Origin: Methanobacteriota archaeon | GTDB lineage: Archaea; Undinarchaeota; Undinarchaeia; Undinarchaeales; Undinarchaeaceae | Assembly (NCBI GenBank): GCA_002687935.1 | Contig: NZBN01000002.1 | Span: 7,394 to 71,393 of the forward strand | Length of the DNA: 64,000 nucleotides | Reading direction: 5' to 3' | Shown here: piece by piece, positions 3,286-48,491 of the stretch | Layout of the letters: each line of letters begins with the position of its first letter | How positions within the stretch are numbered: the first letter of the stretch is position 1 | Translations under genes and position numbers: made by a program | The notes under the pieces: model-generated | What the model saw: the letters and a program-made list of their open reading frames with translations, nothing else | Database searches by the model: none | Told to the model about the DNA's origin: nothing

Positions 3286-3504
3286 ATAACGTGGCCGATG
3301 TATATCAGTGCAAATAATTTGTTCAGAGGCACCTTGTCCAGGAGGTGATGCTTTGATTTCTTGTGAAATTTTCCTGCTGTGTGCGACATGACAAAATATA
3401 CACTGCTGTCTAAAACAAAAATATAGTAGAGTATCGCTTCAAGTGTTAATGCCATGACCGACTTTATGCATAAGTCTTAATAAGTTTGTCCCCCTAGGCT
3501 GGCT

Positions 3505-5290: not shown

Positions 5291-7174
5291 CTATTTATTC
5301 TGTCCCTTTCCTGTATTAAGCCTTTCTATCTCTTCCTTGAGAATTTTCATAATAATCTTTCCATCAGCCTTTCCGCGGACTTCCTTCATTACCAGTCCCA
5401 TCAGTGGTTGAAGAGCACGTTCTTTTTGTTCTCTTATGAATTTCTCTTTCTTTTCCACTATCTTCCGTATCAGTTTTTCCAAATCCTTCTGGCTTATTGC
5501 CTTTACTCCTGTCTTTTTAATAAGAGAGTCAAGACTTTTGTCTGGTGTCCTGCTCCATGCTTCAAGAATTTTAGGGACTGCTTCTTTGCTGAATTTTCCT
5601 GCTGAAAGTGCATTGAAGAGTTCAGTATAGTGTCCTTCCTGGAGTATGAATTCTTCATCCAGTGATTTCACAGCATTTGTAAATGTGCTTGCTATAACGA
5701 CAGGGTCTGCCTCGGTTTCCTTTGTCATTTGTTCGAACATTCTGAGGAAGTCACTTCTCTGTATTTTTTCTGCAAGATTTTGGGAAAGACAGTATTTTTT
5801 CTTGAGCTCTTTAACTCGTTCCTCTGGCATTGTTGGAAGATTTTTCTGCATTTCCTTAAGTAGACTTTTCTGTATTGCGCGTGGGGATAAATCTGTTTCA
5901 GGATACATTCTTGCTGAGCCAGCTATCGGTCGCATATATGCGCTGTTTCCGTCAGGGAGGGCCTTCCTTGTTTCTCCTGGCAATTCATTGGCGGCAAGAA
6001 GTGCTCTGTCTGATGCGACACTTATACATTTTTTACAGTTTTCCTCCTCATCGGCTATAAGTATGAATGCGTCCGTTTCTCCTACTTCCAGTTTCTGTTT
6101 TATTTTACTTACTTCTTCCTCGTTTATTCCGTAAGCTGGTAGCTCATCAGAGTGGAAGAGACCCCTTGCTCCATAGGCTTTTGCGTATTCTGAAAGCTCA
6201 GTTCCAAAACGCCGTCCTTCCTGGATTTCTCTGCCCAATATTCCGGCAAAGCCTGAAAGTCTTGCTCCAAATACTGCTCCTCCTGAATCGAGGGCTGTTC
6301 TAAGTATTTTTGATTTAGTTTTCGCAAGTGTTTTTGAAAGATTTGTCGGCTTTCCGGCAGAAATCCTTATCTTTGAAAGTTCATCTTCTATTTTAAGAAG
6401 ACTGGTCTGTCTCTGTATTTCACTTTCAGCGTATTTTGGAATTAAGTTCAGTTCCTGAACTCCTTTTATTTCTATCCGGGTACCGTTTTTTATTGATATA
6501 TTGAGATCCTGTCTGATTGTTCCTATTCCTCGCTTAACTTTCTTTGTTGCTCTTAACATTCCTCCAATCGTTTTTGCCACTTCTCTGGCCTCTTCCGGAC
6601 TTCGTATGTCAGGTTCTGTTGCTATTTCTATTAAAGGGACTCCGAGTCTGTCAAGATTATAGCTCACCTTTCCGTCTTCTTTTCCAACTATTCTGGCTGA
6701 ATCTTCCTCAAGACATATTGTCTGTATCCTGATTCCACCTTCTGCGGTTTCCAGAAGTCCTCCTGTGGATACAAGTGAGGTTCTTTGAAATCCTGTTGTG
6801 TTTGAGCCGTCAATTACAGTCTTTCTCATTACATGGAGCTCATCCACTATTCTACTATCCAGAAGAAGGGACATCTGTAGCGCCGTTGATAGAGACTCTC
6901 TATCAATTCTTTTTGGAGGCTCTTCGTCAAGCTCTACAAGGCAGTTTGAATCTTTGTAGAAATTATAACTGTATCTATTTCCGCGAACTTCAGCTTGCAT
7001 TGCCGCTGCGTCAACCATTCCAAATTCTCCTGCCACTGCTCTAAGCGTTCTTTCTATGATATAGTCAGGGTCTTCATCCTGAGTTTCGCTTGGACATCTG
7101 CAAAAGAGCTTACCAGTATCTAATTGCTGGTGTATTTCAAGTCCTATTTTCAGCCCTAGCTTCTTGTAGTCCAT
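5291..7174 (-). CDS. gatE: Glutamyl-tRNA(Gln) amidotransferase subunit E (archaeal GatE)
   Basis: 627 aa. The N-terminus MDYKKLGLKIGLEIHQQL matches the GatB/E family. There is a C-terminal YqeY-like domain. Confidence 0.85.
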   Translation of the reverse strand: MDYKKLGLKIGLEIHQQLDTGKLFCRCPSETQDEDPDYIIERTLRAVAGEFGMVDAAAMQAEVRGNRYSYNFYKDSNCLVELDEEPPKRIDRESLSTALQMSLLLDSRIVDELHVMRKTVIDGSNTTGFQRTSLVSTGGLLETAEGGIRIQTICLEEDSARIVGKEDGKVSYNLDRLGVPLIEIATEPDIRSPEEAREVAKTIGGMLRATKKVKRGIGTIRQDLNISIKNGTRIEIKGVQELNLIPKYAESEIQRQTSLLKIEDELSKIRISAGKPTNLSKTLAKTKSKILRTALDSGGAVFGARLSGFAGILGREIQEGRRFGTELSEYAKAYGARGLFHSDELPAYGINEEEVSKIKQKLEVGETDAFILIADEEENCKKCISVASDRALLAANELPGETRKALPDGNSAYMRPIAGSARMYPETDLSPRAIQKSLLKEMQKNLPTMPEERVKELKKKYCLSQNLAEKIQRSDFLRMFEQMTKETEADPVVIASTFTNAVKSLDEEFILQEGHYTELFNALSAGKFSKEAVPKILEAWSRTPDKSLDSLIKKTGVKAISQKDLEKLIRKIVEKKEKFIREQKERALQPLMGLVMKEVRGKADGKIIMKILKEEIERLNTGKGQNK

Positions 7175-41439: not shown

Positions 41440-42834
41440 CTATCCTATAGAATCCTCCATCTCCATCTCTATTAATCGGTTGAGTTCTACAGCGTATTCA
41501 AGTGGAAGTTCCCTGACTATGGGTTCTATAAATCCTGAAACAATCATTTTCTTGGCTTCCTCTTCTGTCAGACCTCTTGACATAAGATAGAATATTTGCT
41601 CTGCGCTTATTTTTCCGACAGTCGCTTCGTGAGCTACATCTACCTTTTCTGTATCAACTTTCATGTAAGGATATGTGTTAGAAACTGAGCTGCCATCCAT
41701 AAGGAGTGCATCACACTGGACGCTTGTTTTGCTTCCTTCAGCATTCTTCCCAATTTTTATGTGACCTCTGTAGGAAGATACTCCTCCGTCCTTACTGATA
41801 CTTTTTGCTGTAATTGTTGATTTCGTGTTTGGTGCAAGATGATACATCTTACTTCCGGTATCTTGATTCTGATCTTCTCCTGAAAAGGCAATTCCCAGGT
41901 AATCTGACTTGGCATTTTCTCCAATAAGCAGACTTGATGGATAAAGCATTGTAACACAACTACCCATATTCCCATTTACCCATTCTAAAAGTCCGTTCTT
42001 TTCTACAATTCCGCGTTTTGTGTTAAGATTGAAGGTGCTCTTGCTCCAATTTTCAACACTGCTGTATCTGCCTCTCGCCCCTTCTAATATATGTATCTCT
42101 ACTCCGCCTGCGTGAAGTGAGAAATCATCATATCTTGGAGCTGAACATCCTTCAATATAATGAAAGCTTGAGTTCTTCTCAGCTATTATTAAAGTATGTT
42201 CAAATTGTCCCAGTTTTGCAGCATTCATTCTGAAATAAGCCTGTAATGGCATAGTTACTTTGACATTCTCAGGAACATAAAGAAAAGTCCCCCCACTCCA
42301 TACCGCTCCATGGAGTGCCGCAAATTTATGAAGATTTGGCGGAATGCACTTTGTCATAAAATATTTTTTAACCAAGTCAGGGTGTGTTTGAACAGCCTCA
42401 TCCATATCAAGAAAAATAACTCCTTGTTTCTCCCATTCCTCCTTGAGACTGTGATACACTACATCACTTTCATATTGGGCACCGACTCCAGCAAGAACTT
42501 TCTGTTCAGCTTCAGGAATTCCTAGCCTTTCAAATGTTTTTTTGATATCTTCAGGGACATCTTTCCAGTCCTTTGCGTTTTTTTCTGCATCTGGGGAAGC
42601 GTAAAAACTGATTTTATCTAAGTCCAGTTTTTCAAGACTGGGTCCCCATTTAGGGTATTCTAGTTTATTGAATAATCCAAGAGATTTCAGGCGGTGTTCA
42701 AGCATCCATTCTGGTTCATTTTTCTCAGAAGAAATTTTTTTAACTACAGTTTCACTGATTCCAGGCTCAGCTTTAAAACGATGCCTCTCCGCATTCTTGT
42801 GTCCAAAAGTATCCCGATTTATATTTTTAGTCAT
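41440..42834 (-). CDS. sufB: Fe-S cluster assembly protein SufB
   Basis: 464 aa with the conserved SufB C-terminal region. Confidence 0.85.
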   Translation of the reverse strand: MTKNINRDTFGHKNAERHRFKAEPGISETVVKKISSEKNEPEWMLEHRLKSLGLFNKLEYPKWGPSLEKLDLDKISFYASPDAEKNAKDWKDVPEDIKKTFERLGIPEAEQKVLAGVGAQYESDVVYHSLKEEWEKQGVIFLDMDEAVQTHPDLVKKYFMTKCIPPNLHKFAALHGAVWSGGTFLYVPENVKVTMPLQAYFRMNAAKLGQFEHTLIIAEKNSSFHYIEGCSAPRYDDFSLHAGGVEIHILEGARGRYSSVENWSKSTFNLNTKRGIVEKNGLLEWVNGNMGSCVTMLYPSSLLIGENAKSDYLGIAFSGEDQNQDTGSKMYHLAPNTKSTITAKSISKDGGVSSYRGHIKIGKNAEGSKTSVQCDALLMDGSSVSNTYPYMKVDTEKVDVAHEATVGKISAEQIFYLMSRGLTEEEAKKMIVSGFIEPIVRELPLEYAVELNRLIEMEMEDSIG

Positions 42835-43223
42835 TTCACAATCTCTCTCTTTTCAGGGTCTAGGTGGCAGTCAGAACATATATTTTCAGCTTCAGGATCC
42901 CGTATTTTATGCAACTTGCATACAATATCCATCGTTTGCGGTAAATTTATGAGTCTCAGAAGTTCCTGCATAACACTGCTATCTACGTTTGAAATATTTC
43001 TTCCTGCCTTTTCTATTTCCTTCTGTGTTGCCTCAGCAAAACTTACTCGGTTTCCCCGCTTTAAATTTCTGTACTGAGAAATTGCACTAGGAGTAAGTCC
43101 CATTAAATTCGCTACATCCTTTTGTTTCATTTCCTGCGTTTCGATAAGCTGTATAGCGATTTCTCTCCTCAAAGCAGGCAATATATAATTTGCCTGTATG
43201 TCTTGTGGCAGTAATACTTTCAT
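42831..43223 (-). CDS. HTH transcriptional regulator with a C-terminal Cys motif (putative suf operon regulator)
   Basis: HTH segment DVANLMGLTPSAISQYRN plus a C-terminal CKLH...CSDCH. It lies immediately upstream of sufB. Confidence 0.5.
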   Translation of the reverse strand: MKVLLPQDIQANYILPALRREIAIQLIETQEMKQKDVANLMGLTPSAISQYRNLKRGNRVSFAEATQKEIEKAGRNISNVDSSVMQELLRLINLPQTMDIVCKLHKIRDPEAENICSDCHLDPEKREIVK

Positions 43224-44759: not shown

Positions 44760-45659
44760 ATGTTCAGCATAACTTTTCTCGGAACAAGCTCAGGCACGCC
44801 TACCGTAGCGAGGGCGCATTCAGCAATCGCTCTCCAGCTGAATGGTGAGATAATCCTGTTTGACTGTGGAGAAGGGACACAAAGGCAGATGATGAAGGCG
44901 AAAACATCTATGATGAAAGTCCGCAGAATTTTTATTACACACTGGCATGCTGACCATTCTCTTGGTCTTGGAGGTCTTATTCAGACAATGTCCTTGCTCG
45001 GAAGGACGGAAGCTCTTGAGATATATGGTCCCTGTGGAACGAAAAAATATATGAAAAGCCTTCTGGACGTTGGTCATTTTAATCCAAAATATCAGCTTCG
45101 CGTAAACGAGCTTAAGGATGGAGGAAAAGTTGAAGGAAAAGGATACAATGTCTTGGCAATAGACGCTAAACATTCTGTTCCTGCGCTAAGTTATCGCATG
45201 GATGAGCCCCAGAAGCCTGGAAAATTTGACAGGAAAAAGGCAGAGTCTTTTGGACTAAAACCACCTCAATTCGGTGAGCTTCAGCGCGGAAATACTCAAA
45301 AGGTTGGAAGAAAAACTATTAAGCCCTCATATGTCATGGGTCCGCTCAGAGAGGGCGCTTCTTTTGTTTATTCAGGGGACACAGCGTATAATGAATCTCT
45401 TGTAAAATTGTCGAATAAGGCCACAGTCTTGGTCCACGAATCGAGTTTTGCCAATGATAAAAAAGACTTTGCCAAAGAAGTTATGCATTCAACAGCAGAG
45501 GATGCTGCGACTGTTGCAAAGAAGGCAGGAGTTAAAAATCTGGTTCTGACTCACATAAGTCCGCGTTATTTGGAAACAAAGACCCTTCTTAAGGAAGCCA
45601 GTAAAATTTTCAAAAATACTAGACTTGCAAAGGATTTCGACAAATTAGAATTTAAGTAG
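44760..45659 (+). CDS. rnz: Ribonuclease Z (tRNA 3' endonuclease, metallo-beta-lactamase fold)
   Basis: ITHWHADH motif. Length about 300 aa. Confidence 0.8.
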   Translation: MFSITFLGTSSGTPTVARAHSAIALQLNGEIILFDCGEGTQRQMMKAKTSMMKVRRIFITHWHADHSLGLGGLIQTMSLLGRTEALEIYGPCGTKKYMKSLLDVGHFNPKYQLRVNELKDGGKVEGKGYNVLAIDAKHSVPALSYRMDEPQKPGKFDRKKAESFGLKPPQFGELQRGNTQKVGRKTIKPSYVMGPLREGASFVYSGDTAYNESLVKLSNKATVLVHESSFANDKKDFAKEVMHSTAEDAATVAKKAGVKNLVLTHISPRYLETKTLLKEASKIFKNTRLAKDFDKLEFK

Positions 45660-46493: not shown

Positions 46494-46602
46494 ACTCTGC
46501 CTAAACTTTTCCCTTATATATCTCTTACTTCTGCTGTGTTCTGTAATGTTTTTATTTTATAATTGGTCAAATATTTAAACTCACTGCCACAGAGCTTAGT
46601 TT

Positions 46603-47766
46603 ATGCAGGAAAATCCTTTTAGTGATTCCGTTCCGTCTCATCTTGCCATAGCGGCGACAGTTTATACAAGAGCTCTTTCAGACCTTGAAAAACTATCTGA
46701 TACCAATAGGTCAAAGCTCTTCCTTGTGATTGGAGACTATGGAAATGGAAAGTCTCATGCGCTTGAAAAACTGAAGAATGATATAAATATCCAAAAAAAG
46801 GACAAGCTTGCAGTTTATACTTCTGCGTTTGCTACGAAAAGCTTGAGACGAATTTATGAGCAGGTTTGTGCTGAACTAATTACAGGTAAAATTGAAAAAT
46901 TTGAAAAGGGGGTTGAAGCTCGTCTGGCAATGGTTTCCAAAGGAATTCCATCCAAGATAATTGAAATTTTCTATGAAGGAAACCACTTAAAAAATCTCGA
47001 TGAAATTTCAGAAAGTCTCCCCTTTGGAAAAGTTGTAAATTCTTCTGCGGATGCAGTTGATTTCATCTGCGCAATAAGCCTTTTAGTTGGTCAGATGATT
47101 CTTCTTATAGATGATATTGAAGAAGCAAGTGTTCTTGAGAGAGCTGAACGCAAGGCATTTTTCGGACATATAAGGGCTCTTTATGACCAGTCAGTAAGAA
47201 AAGATTTGAATCTTAGTGTTATTTTGGCAATGACTTACAAAAAAGTTGAACTCCTCGAGGCAGATCGTCCTGATTTACTGGAGAGAACTGACCATTTTAT
47301 TGACTTCGTAAAGCCAAGTAAAAAAGAGTTTTTTGAGATGGTCAAACGGCGTCTTGAAGTAAGTGGTCTCGGTAATTATTCTTTTACAGATGATGCACTT
47401 GAAACTACTTGGGAAAGTCTTCCTTCAATAAGGTCTATGTTTAATCTTCTTCGTGATAGTCTAGACAAGGCAGAAAAGGACGGTGTTGAAGAGATTAAAT
47501 CTATAGTTATTCCTCAAAAGAAAAAATCTGAAATGGCAAGCGCCTTACAAAGGTCAGCCTACAAACCGGCAGACGATGAGATTGTTACAGTCCTACAAAA
47601 AAAGGATGGACTATACGTTGAGGAAATAGTGAGCAGAACTGAAATGAGTGCTTCTTGGATAAGACACAGACTTGCAGATTTGGTACGGGGAAATGTGCTT
47701 AGAAAGGAGCAGGAGGCGAGGAATAAGCCTGCCAAATACTATTTGGTTAAAGGTAAGAGCCGTTAA
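46603..47766 (+). CDS. P-loop NTPase with C-terminal winged-helix domain (Orc1/Cdc6-like or archaeal-ATPase-like architecture)
   Basis: Walker A VIGDYGNGKSH, Walker B MILLIDDIEE and a C-terminal wHTH (VEEIVSRTEMSASWIRHRLADLV). Confidence 0.55.
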   Translation: MQENPFSDSVPSHLAIAATVYTRALSDLEKLSDTNRSKLFLVIGDYGNGKSHALEKLKNDINIQKKDKLAVYTSAFATKSLRRIYEQVCAELITGKIEKFEKGVEARLAMVSKGIPSKIIEIFYEGNHLKNLDEISESLPFGKVVNSSADAVDFICAISLLVGQMILLIDDIEEASVLERAERKAFFGHIRALYDQSVRKDLNLSVILAMTYKKVELLEADRPDLLERTDHFIDFVKPSKKEFFEMVKRRLEVSGLGNYSFTDDALETTWESLPSIRSMFNLLRDSLDKAEKDGVEEIKSIVIPQKKKSEMASALQRSAYKPADDEIVTVLQKKDGLYVEEIVSRTEMSASWIRHRLADLVRGNVLRKEQEARNKPAKYYLVKGKSR

Positions 47767-47771
47767 ATTAA

Positions 47772-48491
47772 ATGAGAATTGGAGTCAGAGTTTTTTCACT
47801 TTCAGTAGATGAAGAAGCCTATCTTTCTATAATCTATGGTCTGGAAAAAAACTATTCACTGATTGTAGACCCCAGGAAATTTGATACGCCACTTAAGATA
47901 AATGCCCGTTTTAAAAACAAGGATGCTAAAATCAGATATATTGAACTCAACTCAAGTGGAATGGCTTATTTGGAATATAATGGTCTGAAAAAAAAGGCCG
48001 AAAAACATCTTGAAGACTTCAAAGTTCTTGTTTCTTCTATGCTTGGTGAAATCCAGGCAAAAGAAGAAGACTTTGAAATTGTTACTATGGAGCTTCTCTC
48101 TAGAAAAAAACCTCTTCTTCTTCCTCGAGACAAGGAAGAACTTCAAACATTCCGGCGTCTTGAAACAAAAAACGTTCTTTCACGGGCACAGCCAGTGAAA
48201 TGTCCACGCTGTAGTCAGTCATTTCTGCTGTTGTATGAAAATCTAATCAAACCAGAAAAGCGAGTTCTCTGCTCCGACTGTATGTTTTGGTTTTCACCCA
48301 AAAAAGAGAAGGAAGTGTATGTCGTAAATGAGGAATATATGAAGGTTATGAGTGGCGTGTGGAATAAAGTTCAAAAAATAATAAATGCCAGTTGGAGGGA
48401 AGTTACAAGACACGGGCTTCCAATGATTGGTCGCGGGAGTGATGCCAATGAAAAAAAGTCTGAGAAAAAAACATCTATTAAAAAGAAGTGA
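47772..48491 (+). CDS. Hypothetical protein with central zinc ribbon and K-rich C-terminus, co-operonic with the preceding ATPase
   Basis: CPRC...CSDC motif. A 5-nt gap separates it from the upstream gene. Confidence 0.45.
   Translation: MRIGVRVFSLSVDEEAYLSIIYGLEKNYSLIVDPRKFDTPLKINARFKNKDAKIRYIELNSSGMAYLEYNGLKKKAEKHLEDFKVLVSSMLGEIQAKEEDFEIVTMELLSRKKPLLLPRDKEELQTFRRLETKNVLSRAQPVKCPRCSQSFLLLYENLIKPEKRVLCSDCMFWFSPKKEKEVYVVNEEYMKVMSGVWNKVQKIINASWREVTRHGLPMIGRGSDANEKKSEKKTSIKKK

Follow-up and report, generated by a model that had tools for sequence, protein, structure and literature searches.

The 64-kb window analysed here (64,000 nucleotides of contig NZBN01000002.1, assembly GCA_002687935.1, from an archaeon of the Undinarchaeota) contains two adjacent genes, gene 1 and gene 2, whose products are both currently annotated as 'hypothetical' and placed in no specific family. 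An earlier note, made from the letters of the window alone, had described them as a P-loop ATPase with a winged helix and a zinc-ribbon protein lying between membrane proteins and a folate cluster, and had proposed an uncharacterised defence or DNA-transaction module, or else a divergent Orc1 copy marking a replication origin. Inspection of the locus bears out the description: both open reading frames (ORFs), their 5-nt spacing (gene 1 stop to gene 2 ATG, TAA-attaa-ATG) and the Walker A, Walker B, winged helix-turn-helix (wHTH) and CPRC...CSDC motifs are all present (Table 1). The result named in the note as a refutation did not occur: gene 1 gave no clear match to a housekeeping ATPase, and gene 2 is conserved and always co-located with it. 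Of the options raised, a DNA-transaction module fits the evidence best, and gene 1 represents a new family, with sharp limits, of a superfamily already known.

Given the 5-nt gap, gene 2 is probably translationally coupled to gene 1. A scan for bacterial-type promoters and terminators detected none above chance, and no terminator between the two genes.

Table 1. Features of the gene pair and its promoter, with positions in the window
Feature	Position	Strand	Description
Degenerate box B remnant, TGTGTTCTGTAATG	46535-46548	+	From the window and alignments of the upstream region
BRE/TATA-like element, CAAATATTTAAA	46568-46579	+	From the sequence and invariant alignment columns
Gene 1	46603-47766	+	387-aa AAA+ ATPase with lid and C-terminal wHTH; ORC/Cdc6-shaped; AAA_22/BrxC_BrxD-like superfamily
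N-terminal peptide, MQENPFSDSVPSHLAIAATVYTRA	46603-46674	+	15/24 residues invariant
Walker A, G44DYGNGKSH52	46732-46758	+	G44, Y46, G47, G49, K50, S51, H52 invariant
Helical insertion, ~80-90 aa, between beta2 and beta3	46843-47082	+	Helices 81-161 of the model, pLDDT 89-97
Walker B, LLIDDIEE	47098-47124	+	D170, D171, E173, E174 invariant
Box VII-like segment, D221-R-P-D-L-L-E-R228-T-D230	47263-47292	+	D221, R222, D224, R228, D230 invariant
Sensor-2-like motif in the lid, S-I-R277-x-M-F-N-L-L-R	47425-47454	+	I276, R277, N281 invariant
C-terminal wHTH, aa 321-382	47563-47748	+	19/62 residues invariant; model topology H-H-H-E-E
Gene 2	47772-48491	+	239-aa orphan partner; TBP-fold domain and C4 zinc ribbon
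Single TBP-fold domain, aa 1-95	47772-48056	+	S1-H1-S2-S3-S4-S5-H2; model pLDDT 86-95
C4 zinc ribbon, C144, C147, C167, C170, then W173	48177-48326	+	Weak zinc-ribbon profile matches
C-terminal segment, N-E-E-Y-M-x-V-M-x-G-V-W-x-K-V-Q-K-x-I-x-A-S-W-R-E-V...G-x-P	48327-48428	+	pLDDT 55-77
Lys-rich tail	48429-48491	+	0/20 residues invariant; overlaps the 5' end of the 5-formyl-tetrahydrofolate cyclo-ligase gene (ATG 48442)

Architecture and family of the two proteins

Conservation in gene 1 was read from a 16-sequence alignment, and the structures of both proteins were modelled from shallow alignments (16 sequences for gene 1 and 12 for gene 2). The AlphaFold model of gene 1 (predicted local distance difference test, pLDDT, 83; predicted template modelling score, pTM, 0.70) displays an AAA+ core, a helical insertion, a lid, a disordered linker and a winged helix, and in this model the protein ends in the wHTH, with neither repeats nor an effector domain. 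Judged by its motifs, gene 1 is a catalytically intact AAA+ ATPase. Its first 24 residues (ENPFSDSVPTH.AIAATVYT) are nearly invariant. The insertion helices 81-161 are flanked by strands E68-73 and E164-170, and the insertion occupies the position of the initiator-specific motif of Orc1/Cdc6 at about twice the length (~80-90 aa as compared to about 45). R222 and R228 of the box VII-like segment are candidate arginine fingers. The profile aligner hhalign pairs this segment with the 'PRVxSS' region of Orc1/Cdc6 and the sensor-2-like motif with 'GDARxAIDLLR', and the functional roles of the two segments are putative. The recognition helix and wing of the wHTH are nearly invariant (W352, H355, R356, K368, Q370, R373, N374, P376, A377 and Y379). 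Profile matches of this domain are to PDB 1sfx (E 7e-4) and to the ArsR/Sta1 type, with a weak Pfam match to an ArsR-type HTH at the C-terminus. The Pfam match of gene 1 to DnaA is below threshold. In PDB sequence searches, gene 1 was matched through its wHTH only and gene 2 through generic zinc ribbons only.

Comparison of the gene 1 model with the PDB in Foldseek revealed the archaeal Orc1/Cdc6 proteins as the top matches (2v1u, 2qby, 1fnn and 1w5s; E 2.5e-9 to 1e-7 over about 420 aligned columns), of which 2v1u and 2qby are origin-DNA-bound. These were followed by eukaryotic ORC/Cdc6 and then by TnsC, MuB, RFC, DnaA and PAB2304, at only about 1e-5. Gene 1 resembles Orc1/Cdc6 in its AAA+ base, lid and winged helix, in its size (~390 aa) and in carrying Walker A and B, the box VII-like 'DRxDLxxRxD...FxKP' and the sensor-2-like 'SIRxMFNxLR' in equivalent places. 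The fold matches to 2v1u and 2qby (2.5e-9 to 2e-8), three to four orders better than those to TnsC, MuB, RFC, DnaA or PAB2304, and the alignment of the two motifs with 'PRVxSS...FxPY' and 'GDARxAIDLLR' favour the explanation that gene 1 is a highly divergent Orc1/Cdc6 paralogue in replication, a second initiator or MCM loader with gene 2 as its lineage-specific co-factor and with the inverted boxes beside the gene as origin elements resembling mini origin recognition boxes (ORBs). We consider this unlikely.

The family evidence speaks against it. Gene 1 gave no match to TIGR02928, Cdc6_C (PF09079) or Cdc6_lid at E≤1, and against an alignment of five canonical Orc1/Cdc6 sequences (haloarchaeal plasmid orc1, Sso Cdc6-1, Ape ORC1, Sso Cdc6-3 and Dm Orc1) the gene 1 family reached an hhalign probability of 6.3%, from Walker B to the lid only. 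This local alignment pairs 'F.KP..KE' with 'F.PY.a.qL' and 'SIR' with 'DAR'. With a hidden Markov model (HMM) of canonical Orc1, orthologues of gene 1 scored E 0.03-0.15 and the window protein >1, in a database of a few thousand ORFs. The 'ENPFSD...' N-terminal peptide does not occur in Orc1/Cdc6, and Orc1/Cdc6 differs from gene 1 also in having no obligate partner with a TBP (TATA-binding protein) fold and a zinc ribbon. According to the supplement of Dombrowski et al. 2020 (PMC7414124), Undinarchaeota metagenome-assembled genomes (MAGs) encode canonical Orc1, arCOG00467, which must then be a gene other than gene 1. Neither a paralogue of gene 1 nor a canonical Orc1 was detected in the window or the compared loci, where the other P-loop proteins, judged solely by the context of their Walker A motifs, resemble FtsY, adenylate kinase and SufC. 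The Orc1/Cdc6-like architecture proposed in the earlier note is thus upheld at the level of fold and lost at the level of sequence family, and the proposal of a divergent Orc1 copy is not supported by sequence.

The true nearest sequence relatives of gene 1 are small archaeal ATPases of the AAA_22/BrxC_BrxD type (PF10923, formerly DUF2791). The likeness spans the NPF motif of the N-terminus, Walker A, the large insertion, Walker B and the lid, and several members possess a wHTH as well. The hhalign comparison of the gene 1 family with 27 remote matches gave a probability of 99.9% (E 3e-37) over 356 columns, beginning at the NPF motif common to both and extending to the wHTH. It is partly circular, because the remote set was chosen by similarity to the query, though its full-length extent is still informative. 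Gene 1 itself matches Pfam AAA_22 (PF13401) over residues 38-213 with 28.9 bits against a cut-off of 27, and the same match is precomputed for most of its orthologues. Among the 27 remote relatives, Pfam domains are AAA_22 (22/27), BrxC_BrxD (13), ATPase_2 (12) and TniB (12), with AAA_16 also represented. Several carry C-terminal MarR, Penicillinase_R or DUF7343 winged helices, and none is a Cdc6. Gene 1 differs from these ATPases in that identity is about 18% and that they occur solo or in clusters of tRNA-guanine transglycosylase (TGT) and Que genes, with no gene 2-like neighbour.

Other family assignments were rejected. A match to TniB (PF05621), of the Tn7-like ATPases, exceeds its cut-off (26.5 against 22.4 bits) yet covers only residues 20-92 and half of the Pfam profile, and no transposase (TniA/TniQ or TnsAB context) was found in any locus. 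BrxC_BrxD, and with it BREX, was matched by gene 1 through the P-loop region only, below cut-off (15.2 against 22.2 bits; NCBIfam BrxF E 0.023), and the BREX companions PglX, PglZ and BrxA/B/L are absent from the window and related loci. STAND and archaeal ATPases were likewise below cut-off (nSTAND1 15.7/27.1, NACHT 15.7/26.7 and ATPase_2 15.0/33.2 bits), and membership in PF01637, which the earlier note had proposed to test, is not supported.

The model of gene 2 has a pLDDT of 75 overall and of 86-95 over residues 1-90. In Foldseek, this N-terminal unit superposes on a single repeat of TBPs from archaea and eukaryotes (probability 0.97-0.99, E 0.1-0.5, root-mean-square deviation (rmsd) 2.8-3.6 Å, 88-90 columns) and also on the N-domain of RNase HIII, while an independent search of BFVD matched viral TBPs with a probability of up to 1.00. 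The helix-grip-like S1-H1-S2-S3-S4-S5-H2 repeat superposable on TBP, by which the TBP-domain superfamily is recognised, is present in the model of gene 2. An invariant I-x-D-P-R-x-F-D-x-P...A-R-F-K (aa 31-48) lies in the S2-S3 segment, so that the DPR.FD.P stretch would sit at the 'stirrup' position of TBP (S2-S3 loop). Gene 2 is not a true TBP (PF00352), as it has a single repeat, no Pfam TBP match at E≤1 and an identity of 9-16%. Archaea are known to possess TBP domains in monopartite form as well as fused to other domains, and the N-domains of RNase HIII and AlkA are comparable (PMC3597702); the N-domain of gene 2 resembles such single TBP-domain proteins at about 3 Å rmsd. Its mix of TBP domain, helical linker, C4 ribbon, C-terminal helix and linkage to an ATPase is not among the architectures of that survey, which names neither zinc nor ATPase. 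The domain combination was not found elsewhere.

The four cysteines of the ribbon (C144-P-R-C147...C167-S-D-C170) are invariant in 12 orthologues. The invariant residues of gene 2 fall in three places: the S2-S3 stretch, the ribbon cysteines with W173, and the C-terminal segment. The C-terminal segment has the highest mean column identity in gene 2, with 9/34 residues invariant, and its low pLDDT makes it a candidate interface that may fold on binding. The poly-Lys tail pointed out in the earlier note is real, though specific to the lineage of the window and not family-wide. It overlaps the ligase gene by about 50 nt (48442-48491) in a different reading frame and is missing from orthologues at 35-40% identity; it looks like a recent read-through extension, because the orthologues of other lineages end about 17 codons earlier. 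Pfam, NCBIfam, PADLOC and PHROGs revealed no family for gene 2 beyond weak zinc-ribbon matches, and the name Trm112, given by JGI to one orthologue, was discarded for want of a Pfam Trm112 match.

Distribution, neighbourhood and remote relatives

Both genes are restricted to Undinarchaeota (DPANN), and an identical protein in nr bears the name 'Candidatus Undinarchaeales archaeon'. Among 5.8 billion clusters, the gene 1 family comprises 19 proteins and that of gene 2, 13. An exhaustive HMMER profile search of 1.84 billion representatives returned one 50%-identity gene 1 cluster and 29 weak matches (best E 3.5e-10). A pattern scan of 185,579 GTDB species genomes revealed six loci, all in Undinarchaeota/UAP2 MAGs, and the pair is present at 2/80 archaeal TYW1 loci from metagenomes. 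The gene 2 orthologue lies directly 3' of gene 1 in 9/9 of the first loci (compared loci are cited as L001 and so on) and in the later L016 and L019, that is, in 11/11, with a spacing of 0-134 nt. The upper value belongs to the GCA_043814055.1 lineage, where a 134-nt spacer with a called 46-aa ORF is found (L002:7167-7307); all other lineages have 0-38 nt.

Synteny of RNase Z, an optional TYW1, the pair and folate genes is conserved. In the window, the Yip1-type membrane protein upstream of the pair is encoded on the opposite strand, followed by RNase Z and, farther away, SufS/SufD/SufB. Downstream, on the same strand, 5-formyl-tetrahydrofolate cyclo-ligase (MTHFS), serine hydroxymethyltransferase (SHMT) and FolD follow with overlaps or gaps of 2-33 nt, so the placement between a membrane protein and the folate cluster was correct. 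Base composition at the locus is unremarkable, and an Rfam scan returned two tRNA-Ser genes only, both distant from the pair.

It is very unlikely that the two genes are unrelated neighbours, gene 1 being a stand-alone wHTH ATPase regulator and gene 2 a zinc-ribbon protein kept adjacent by gene-order inertia. The wHTH-bearing relatives of gene 1 are indeed solo, without a gene 2-like neighbour, and the synteny of RNase Z and SHMT is equally kept without an obvious functional link. Adjacency in 11/11 loci, however, has survived rearrangement of the flanks (TYW1 or Yip1 upstream, differing folate genes downstream), most lineages leave 0-38 nt between the genes and have neither promoter nor terminator there, and the phyletic distributions of both families are identical and extremely narrow.

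Between the window and distant lineages, identity is 54-55% for gene 1 and 36-40% for gene 2; for the neighbours in the same lineages it is 48-51% (RNase Z), 60-62% (SHMT), 40-44% (FolD) and 34-40% (MTHFS). As compared to the closest relative (92% and 84% identity), the ratio of nonsynonymous to synonymous substitution rates (dN/dS) is 0.031 for gene 1, 0.061 for gene 2 and 0.029 for SHMT. The values of 0.031 and 0.061 indicate that both are real genes and not chance ORFs, and the identity levels together with dN/dS are the signature of vertically inherited core genes rather than of mobile or defence genes.

The least probable of the explanations considered is that the pair serves anti-virus or anti-plasmid defence as an ATPase-sensor system of the STAND, BREX or other type, with gene 2 as effector or sensor. 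Sub-threshold likeness of gene 1 to BrxC_BrxD, nSTAND, NACHT, PADLOC PDC-S20, DndF and DpdH (E 1e-3 to 2e-2) and the fact that some remote relatives are ATPases of defence-type islands speak for it. These profile matches, however, remain below their thresholds and cover the P-loop region only. No effector domain, whether nuclease, protease, TIR, pore or other, is present in gene 2, and in every lineage the pair keeps one and the same place on the chromosome, surrounded by housekeeping genes and without an integrase, transposase or composition anomaly. Its rate and dN/dS are SHMT-like, the opposite of typical defence genes. In PADLOC the best matches were short (E 1e-3 to 4e-2) and no defence-system model was matched significantly; tblastn against phages and plasmids, and PHROGs, gave nothing significant for either protein. 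The sole plasmid match (E 0.1) is to the P-loop of a protein named 'BREX ATP-binding domain' and encoded in a Dpd island of a haloarchaeon. Vertical inheritance, the housekeeping neighbourhood, core-enzyme-like rates and the missing PADLOC, PHROG, phage and plasmid signal count together against the proposed defence module.

Two relatives of gene 1, the closest remote one (P0033, E 3.5e-10) and a homologue on a haloarchaeal plasmid, are found in 7-deazaguanine DNA-modification islands, in which TGT/DpdA is clustered with a ~280-aa protein, the ATPase, QueD and QueC (plus HNH). The ATPases of these DpdA clusters have no wHTH, and homology of gene 2 to their coupled partner was rejected at an hhalign probability of 0.2%. 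The wHTH-bearing relatives P0044, P0067 and P0045, on the other hand, are solo genes in ordinary archaeal chromosomal contexts. No gene 2-like ORF was found near any of the remote relatives examined, for which reason the partnership of gene 1 and gene 2 is regarded as an invention of the Undinarchaeota.

In the light of these clusters, the pair may be thought to assist a nucleic-acid modification or processing enzyme, in a DpdA-like role on DNA or in a tRNA role with TYW1, RNase Z and the folate enzymes. The position of the pair, in Undinarchaeota always between tRNA-processing (RNase Z, TYW1) and folate genes, is consistent with this, as are P0033 and its haloarchaeal homologue in the TGT/DpdA-QueD-QueC clusters and the binding of RNA/DNA duplexes by the TBP-like domain of RNase HIII (PMC3597702). 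Such a helper role is decidedly unlikely, as no TGT/DpdA or Que gene lies near the pair in any Undinarchaeota locus, the DpdA-cluster ATPases have neither the wHTH nor a partner related to gene 2, and the relatives that do have a wHTH are solo. Nor is any single enzyme partner conserved, because the flanks vary (MTHFS/SHMT or formyltransferase/FPGS; TYW1 present or absent).

Several side observations were made in these clusters and flanks. In L010:18018-22201 (Salinigranum marinum plasmid NZ_CP100464.1), L011:467-6487 and L012:491-6511, the nearest remote relatives of gene 1, BrxC_BrxD-type ATPases of ~390-400 aa, are translationally coupled to a conserved ~280-aa protein and lie 3' of a TGT/DpdA-like transglycosylase, with QueC/QueD/QueE/FolE (and DUF6884 or HNH) in the same clusters. 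This looks like an archaeal 7-deazaguanine DNA-modification cluster in which the ATPase may stand in for bacterial DpdB. RNase Z of the window (44760-45659) shows, against L004:4158-5054, a dS of 0.37, far below its neighbours, as compared to 1.5-1.8 for gene 1, gene 2 and SHMT against the close relative; recent recombination or gene conversion, or constraint at the nucleotide level, is possible. Directly upstream of and co-oriented with SufB/SufD/SufS, the window encodes a 130-aa protein without Pfam match (42831-43223, minus strand), which has an HTH-like middle DVANLMGLTPSAISQY, a C-terminal C-x2-C and another Cys 15 residues upstream, and which may regulate the SUF operon by sensing Fe-S. 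In one sister lineage, a toxin-antitoxin pair of ribbon-helix-helix (RHH) and ParE type is inserted between SHMT and DHFR/thymidylate synthase (L001:9846-10364), the sole mobile-type element across the syntenic loci.

Promoter elements and the question of an origin

Phylogenetic footprinting of the region 5' of gene 1, aligned from seven other lineages (GC 33-50%), revealed only three conserved blocks: box B, a block of the B recognition element and TATA box (BRE/TATA), and box C. Box B, (C/T)TGTATTGT, precedes the TATA box by about 30 nt, and its extended form in sister lineages is TGTATTGT(Y)GTAATG. The BRE/TATA block reads TAACAAAnTATTTAAA, and its core TATTTAAA is kept in all nine lineages. 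Box C, AAAACAATACA, is the reverse complement of box B; it starts about 24 nt after TATA and covers the predicted transcription start, whose position was taken from the usual archaeal TATA-to-start spacing. In seven sister lineages, the promoter of gene 1 is enclosed by a conserved inverted repeat, TGTATTGT ... TATTTAAA ... ACAATACA. The region is found at L001:5822-5986, L002/L008:5827-5981, L003:5835-5988, L006:5820-5980, L007:5824-5984, L009:5823-5982, L016:~3338-3500 and L019:4368-4452, gene 1 starting at 6001 in the listed loci from L001 to L009, ~3515 in L016 and 4468 in L019.

The 12-mer GAAAACAATACA (≤1 mismatch) occurs in 1-4 copies, mostly at least two, in the 400 bp that precede gene 1. 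The rest of the 13-kb loci contains none, the expectation being 0.1-0.2 copies. Box A, a third copy, coincides with the last TYW1 codons (E-N-N-T; L001:5822-5833 and equivalents) and keeps identical synonymous positions though TYW1 is only 56-60% identical between lineages. An extra copy, GAAAGCAATACA, lies about 240 bp farther upstream within TYW1 (L002:5589-5600 and L003:5597-5608). The TYW1-internal 12-mers may reflect coding constraint, at least partly so for box A, or may be additional binding sites. In L019, TYW1 has no box A and is parted from gene 1 by a Yip1-like gene, while boxes B and C still flank the TATA box of gene 1. As both boxes are kept there despite a different upstream gene, they belong to the promoter of the pair's operon and are ruled out as TYW1 elements.

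The window and its close relatives have lost box C together with the 5' leader. The TATA box ends 23 nt before the ATG, so that the mRNA is probably leaderless in this lineage. Box B is degenerate (Table 1), and the single copy of the 12-mer recovered there has two mismatches (46542-46553, minus strand).

ORB pairs occur at orc1-adjacent archaeal origins, and the arrangement of the inverted boxes recalls them. That boxes of 8-12 nt in inverted orientation bracket about 65 bp of AT-rich DNA upstream of gene 1 in seven lineages is the further point in favour of the replication paralogue discussed above. In the window, however, the upstream intergenic space is 109 bp long and free of ORB-type repeats, box C is deleted, no repeat families or arrays are present, and no ORB-bearing origin lies beside the gene. 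The sister-lineage pair of inverted boxes around TATA is equally well explained as an operator. Both GC skew and AT skew reverse near 16 kb and near 34 kb of the window, in step with a run of genes on one strand (15.4-33.4 kb). The skew thus tracks the direction of transcription and, with the window alone to go by, is no indication of an origin or terminus. The suggestion that the pair marks an origin, with origin-recognition boxes nearby, was accordingly not borne out, as the skew switches lie elsewhere and follow gene orientation.

Function of the pair

The evidence is best explained by an Undinarchaeota-specific core operon for a two-protein, ATP-dependent DNA-binding complex that is probably autoregulated, to which we assign a probability of roughly 45%. 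In such a complex, the near-invariant winged helix of gene 1 would recognise a specific DNA site, and gene 2 would be the obligate adaptor of gene 1, its C-terminal helix probably docking on the ATPase. The TBP fold binds duplex nucleic acid in TBP and in RNase HIII (PMC3597702). The most economical reading is that the complex binds the TGTATTGT/ACAATACA boxes and represses its own transcription, and autoregulation by gene 1 is the simplest reading because its winged helix is invariant in all lineages. ATP binding and hydrolysis would switch the complex between DNA-bound states, and the complex may act at further chromosomal sites as a lineage-specific transcription factor or a chromatin- or replication-accessory factor.

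Non-replicative Orc1/Cdc6 paralogues can act as transcription regulators, as exemplified by Sulfolobus Orc1-2 in the DNA-damage response. The ORC-shaped AAA+-wHTH architecture of gene 1 and the operator-like boxes at its promoter are similar to these regulators; they are, however, bona fide Orc1/Cdc6 by sequence and lack a dedicated TBP-fold partner.

Several points weigh against this core-operon reading. No copy of the GAAAACAATACA 12-mer with ≤1 mismatch exists anywhere in the 64-kb window. The boxes are degenerate (box B) or deleted (box C) in the lineage of the window while the winged helix is unchanged, which means that they are dispensable or bound by another factor, and this loss weakens autoregulation. 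The closest remote relatives lie in DpdA/7-deazaguanine clusters and point to a different type of DNA transaction. The TBP-fold call comes from a 12-sequence model with weak Foldseek E values (0.01-0.5), though with probabilities of 0.97-1.0, and TBP-like folds are also known from proteins without DNA-binding activity (PMC3597702). In genomes as small as these, conserved gene order may reflect inertia and is uninformative on the process served. What is shown here is the gene pair with its confinement to the phylum and its conservation, the folds, the motifs and the conserved promoter boxes; the process served, the physical gene 1-gene 2 interaction, DNA binding and the identity of the protein that binds the boxes are what we infer.

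A more elaborate alternative, itself improbable, is a promoter- or origin-proximal machine of a kind not recognised before, in which two ORC-shaped protomers on inverted TGTATTGT boxes position the TBP-fold/zinc-ribbon partner on TATA or AT-rich DNA. The winged helices would hold the boxes, ATP would drive the placement, and a gene 2 dimer would mimic the TBP saddle. Gene 2 might then replace TBP/TFB, as a TBP-mimic repressor or alternative initiation factor, or open the DNA as a minimal lineage-specific initiator. If true, it would provide the first archaeal example of an AAA+ loader reserved for a TBP-fold protein. The remaining probability falls to functions not anticipated by any of the explanations given.

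Under the preferred reading of an autoregulated DNA-binding complex, the module unites two ancient DNA-handling folds that are usually studied apart, the ORC/Cdc6-shaped AAA+-wHTH and the single TBP repeat, and the promoter boxes supply a candidate DNA target that makes it testable in vitro without cultivation. The distinction between looking like Orc1/Cdc6 (fold) and being Orc1/Cdc6 (sequence family) matters for counts of replication genes in DPANN. The gene 1 family is also tied to sparse, undescribed archaeal 'NPF'-motif ATPases, some of them in DpdA/7-deazaguanine clusters. Undinarchaeota genomes are about 0.7 Mb in size, and nearly every retained gene is under pressure to be useful. This small genome, together with the slow, SHMT-like evolution of the pair, suggests that the operon likely serves an important information-processing task that annotation has missed.

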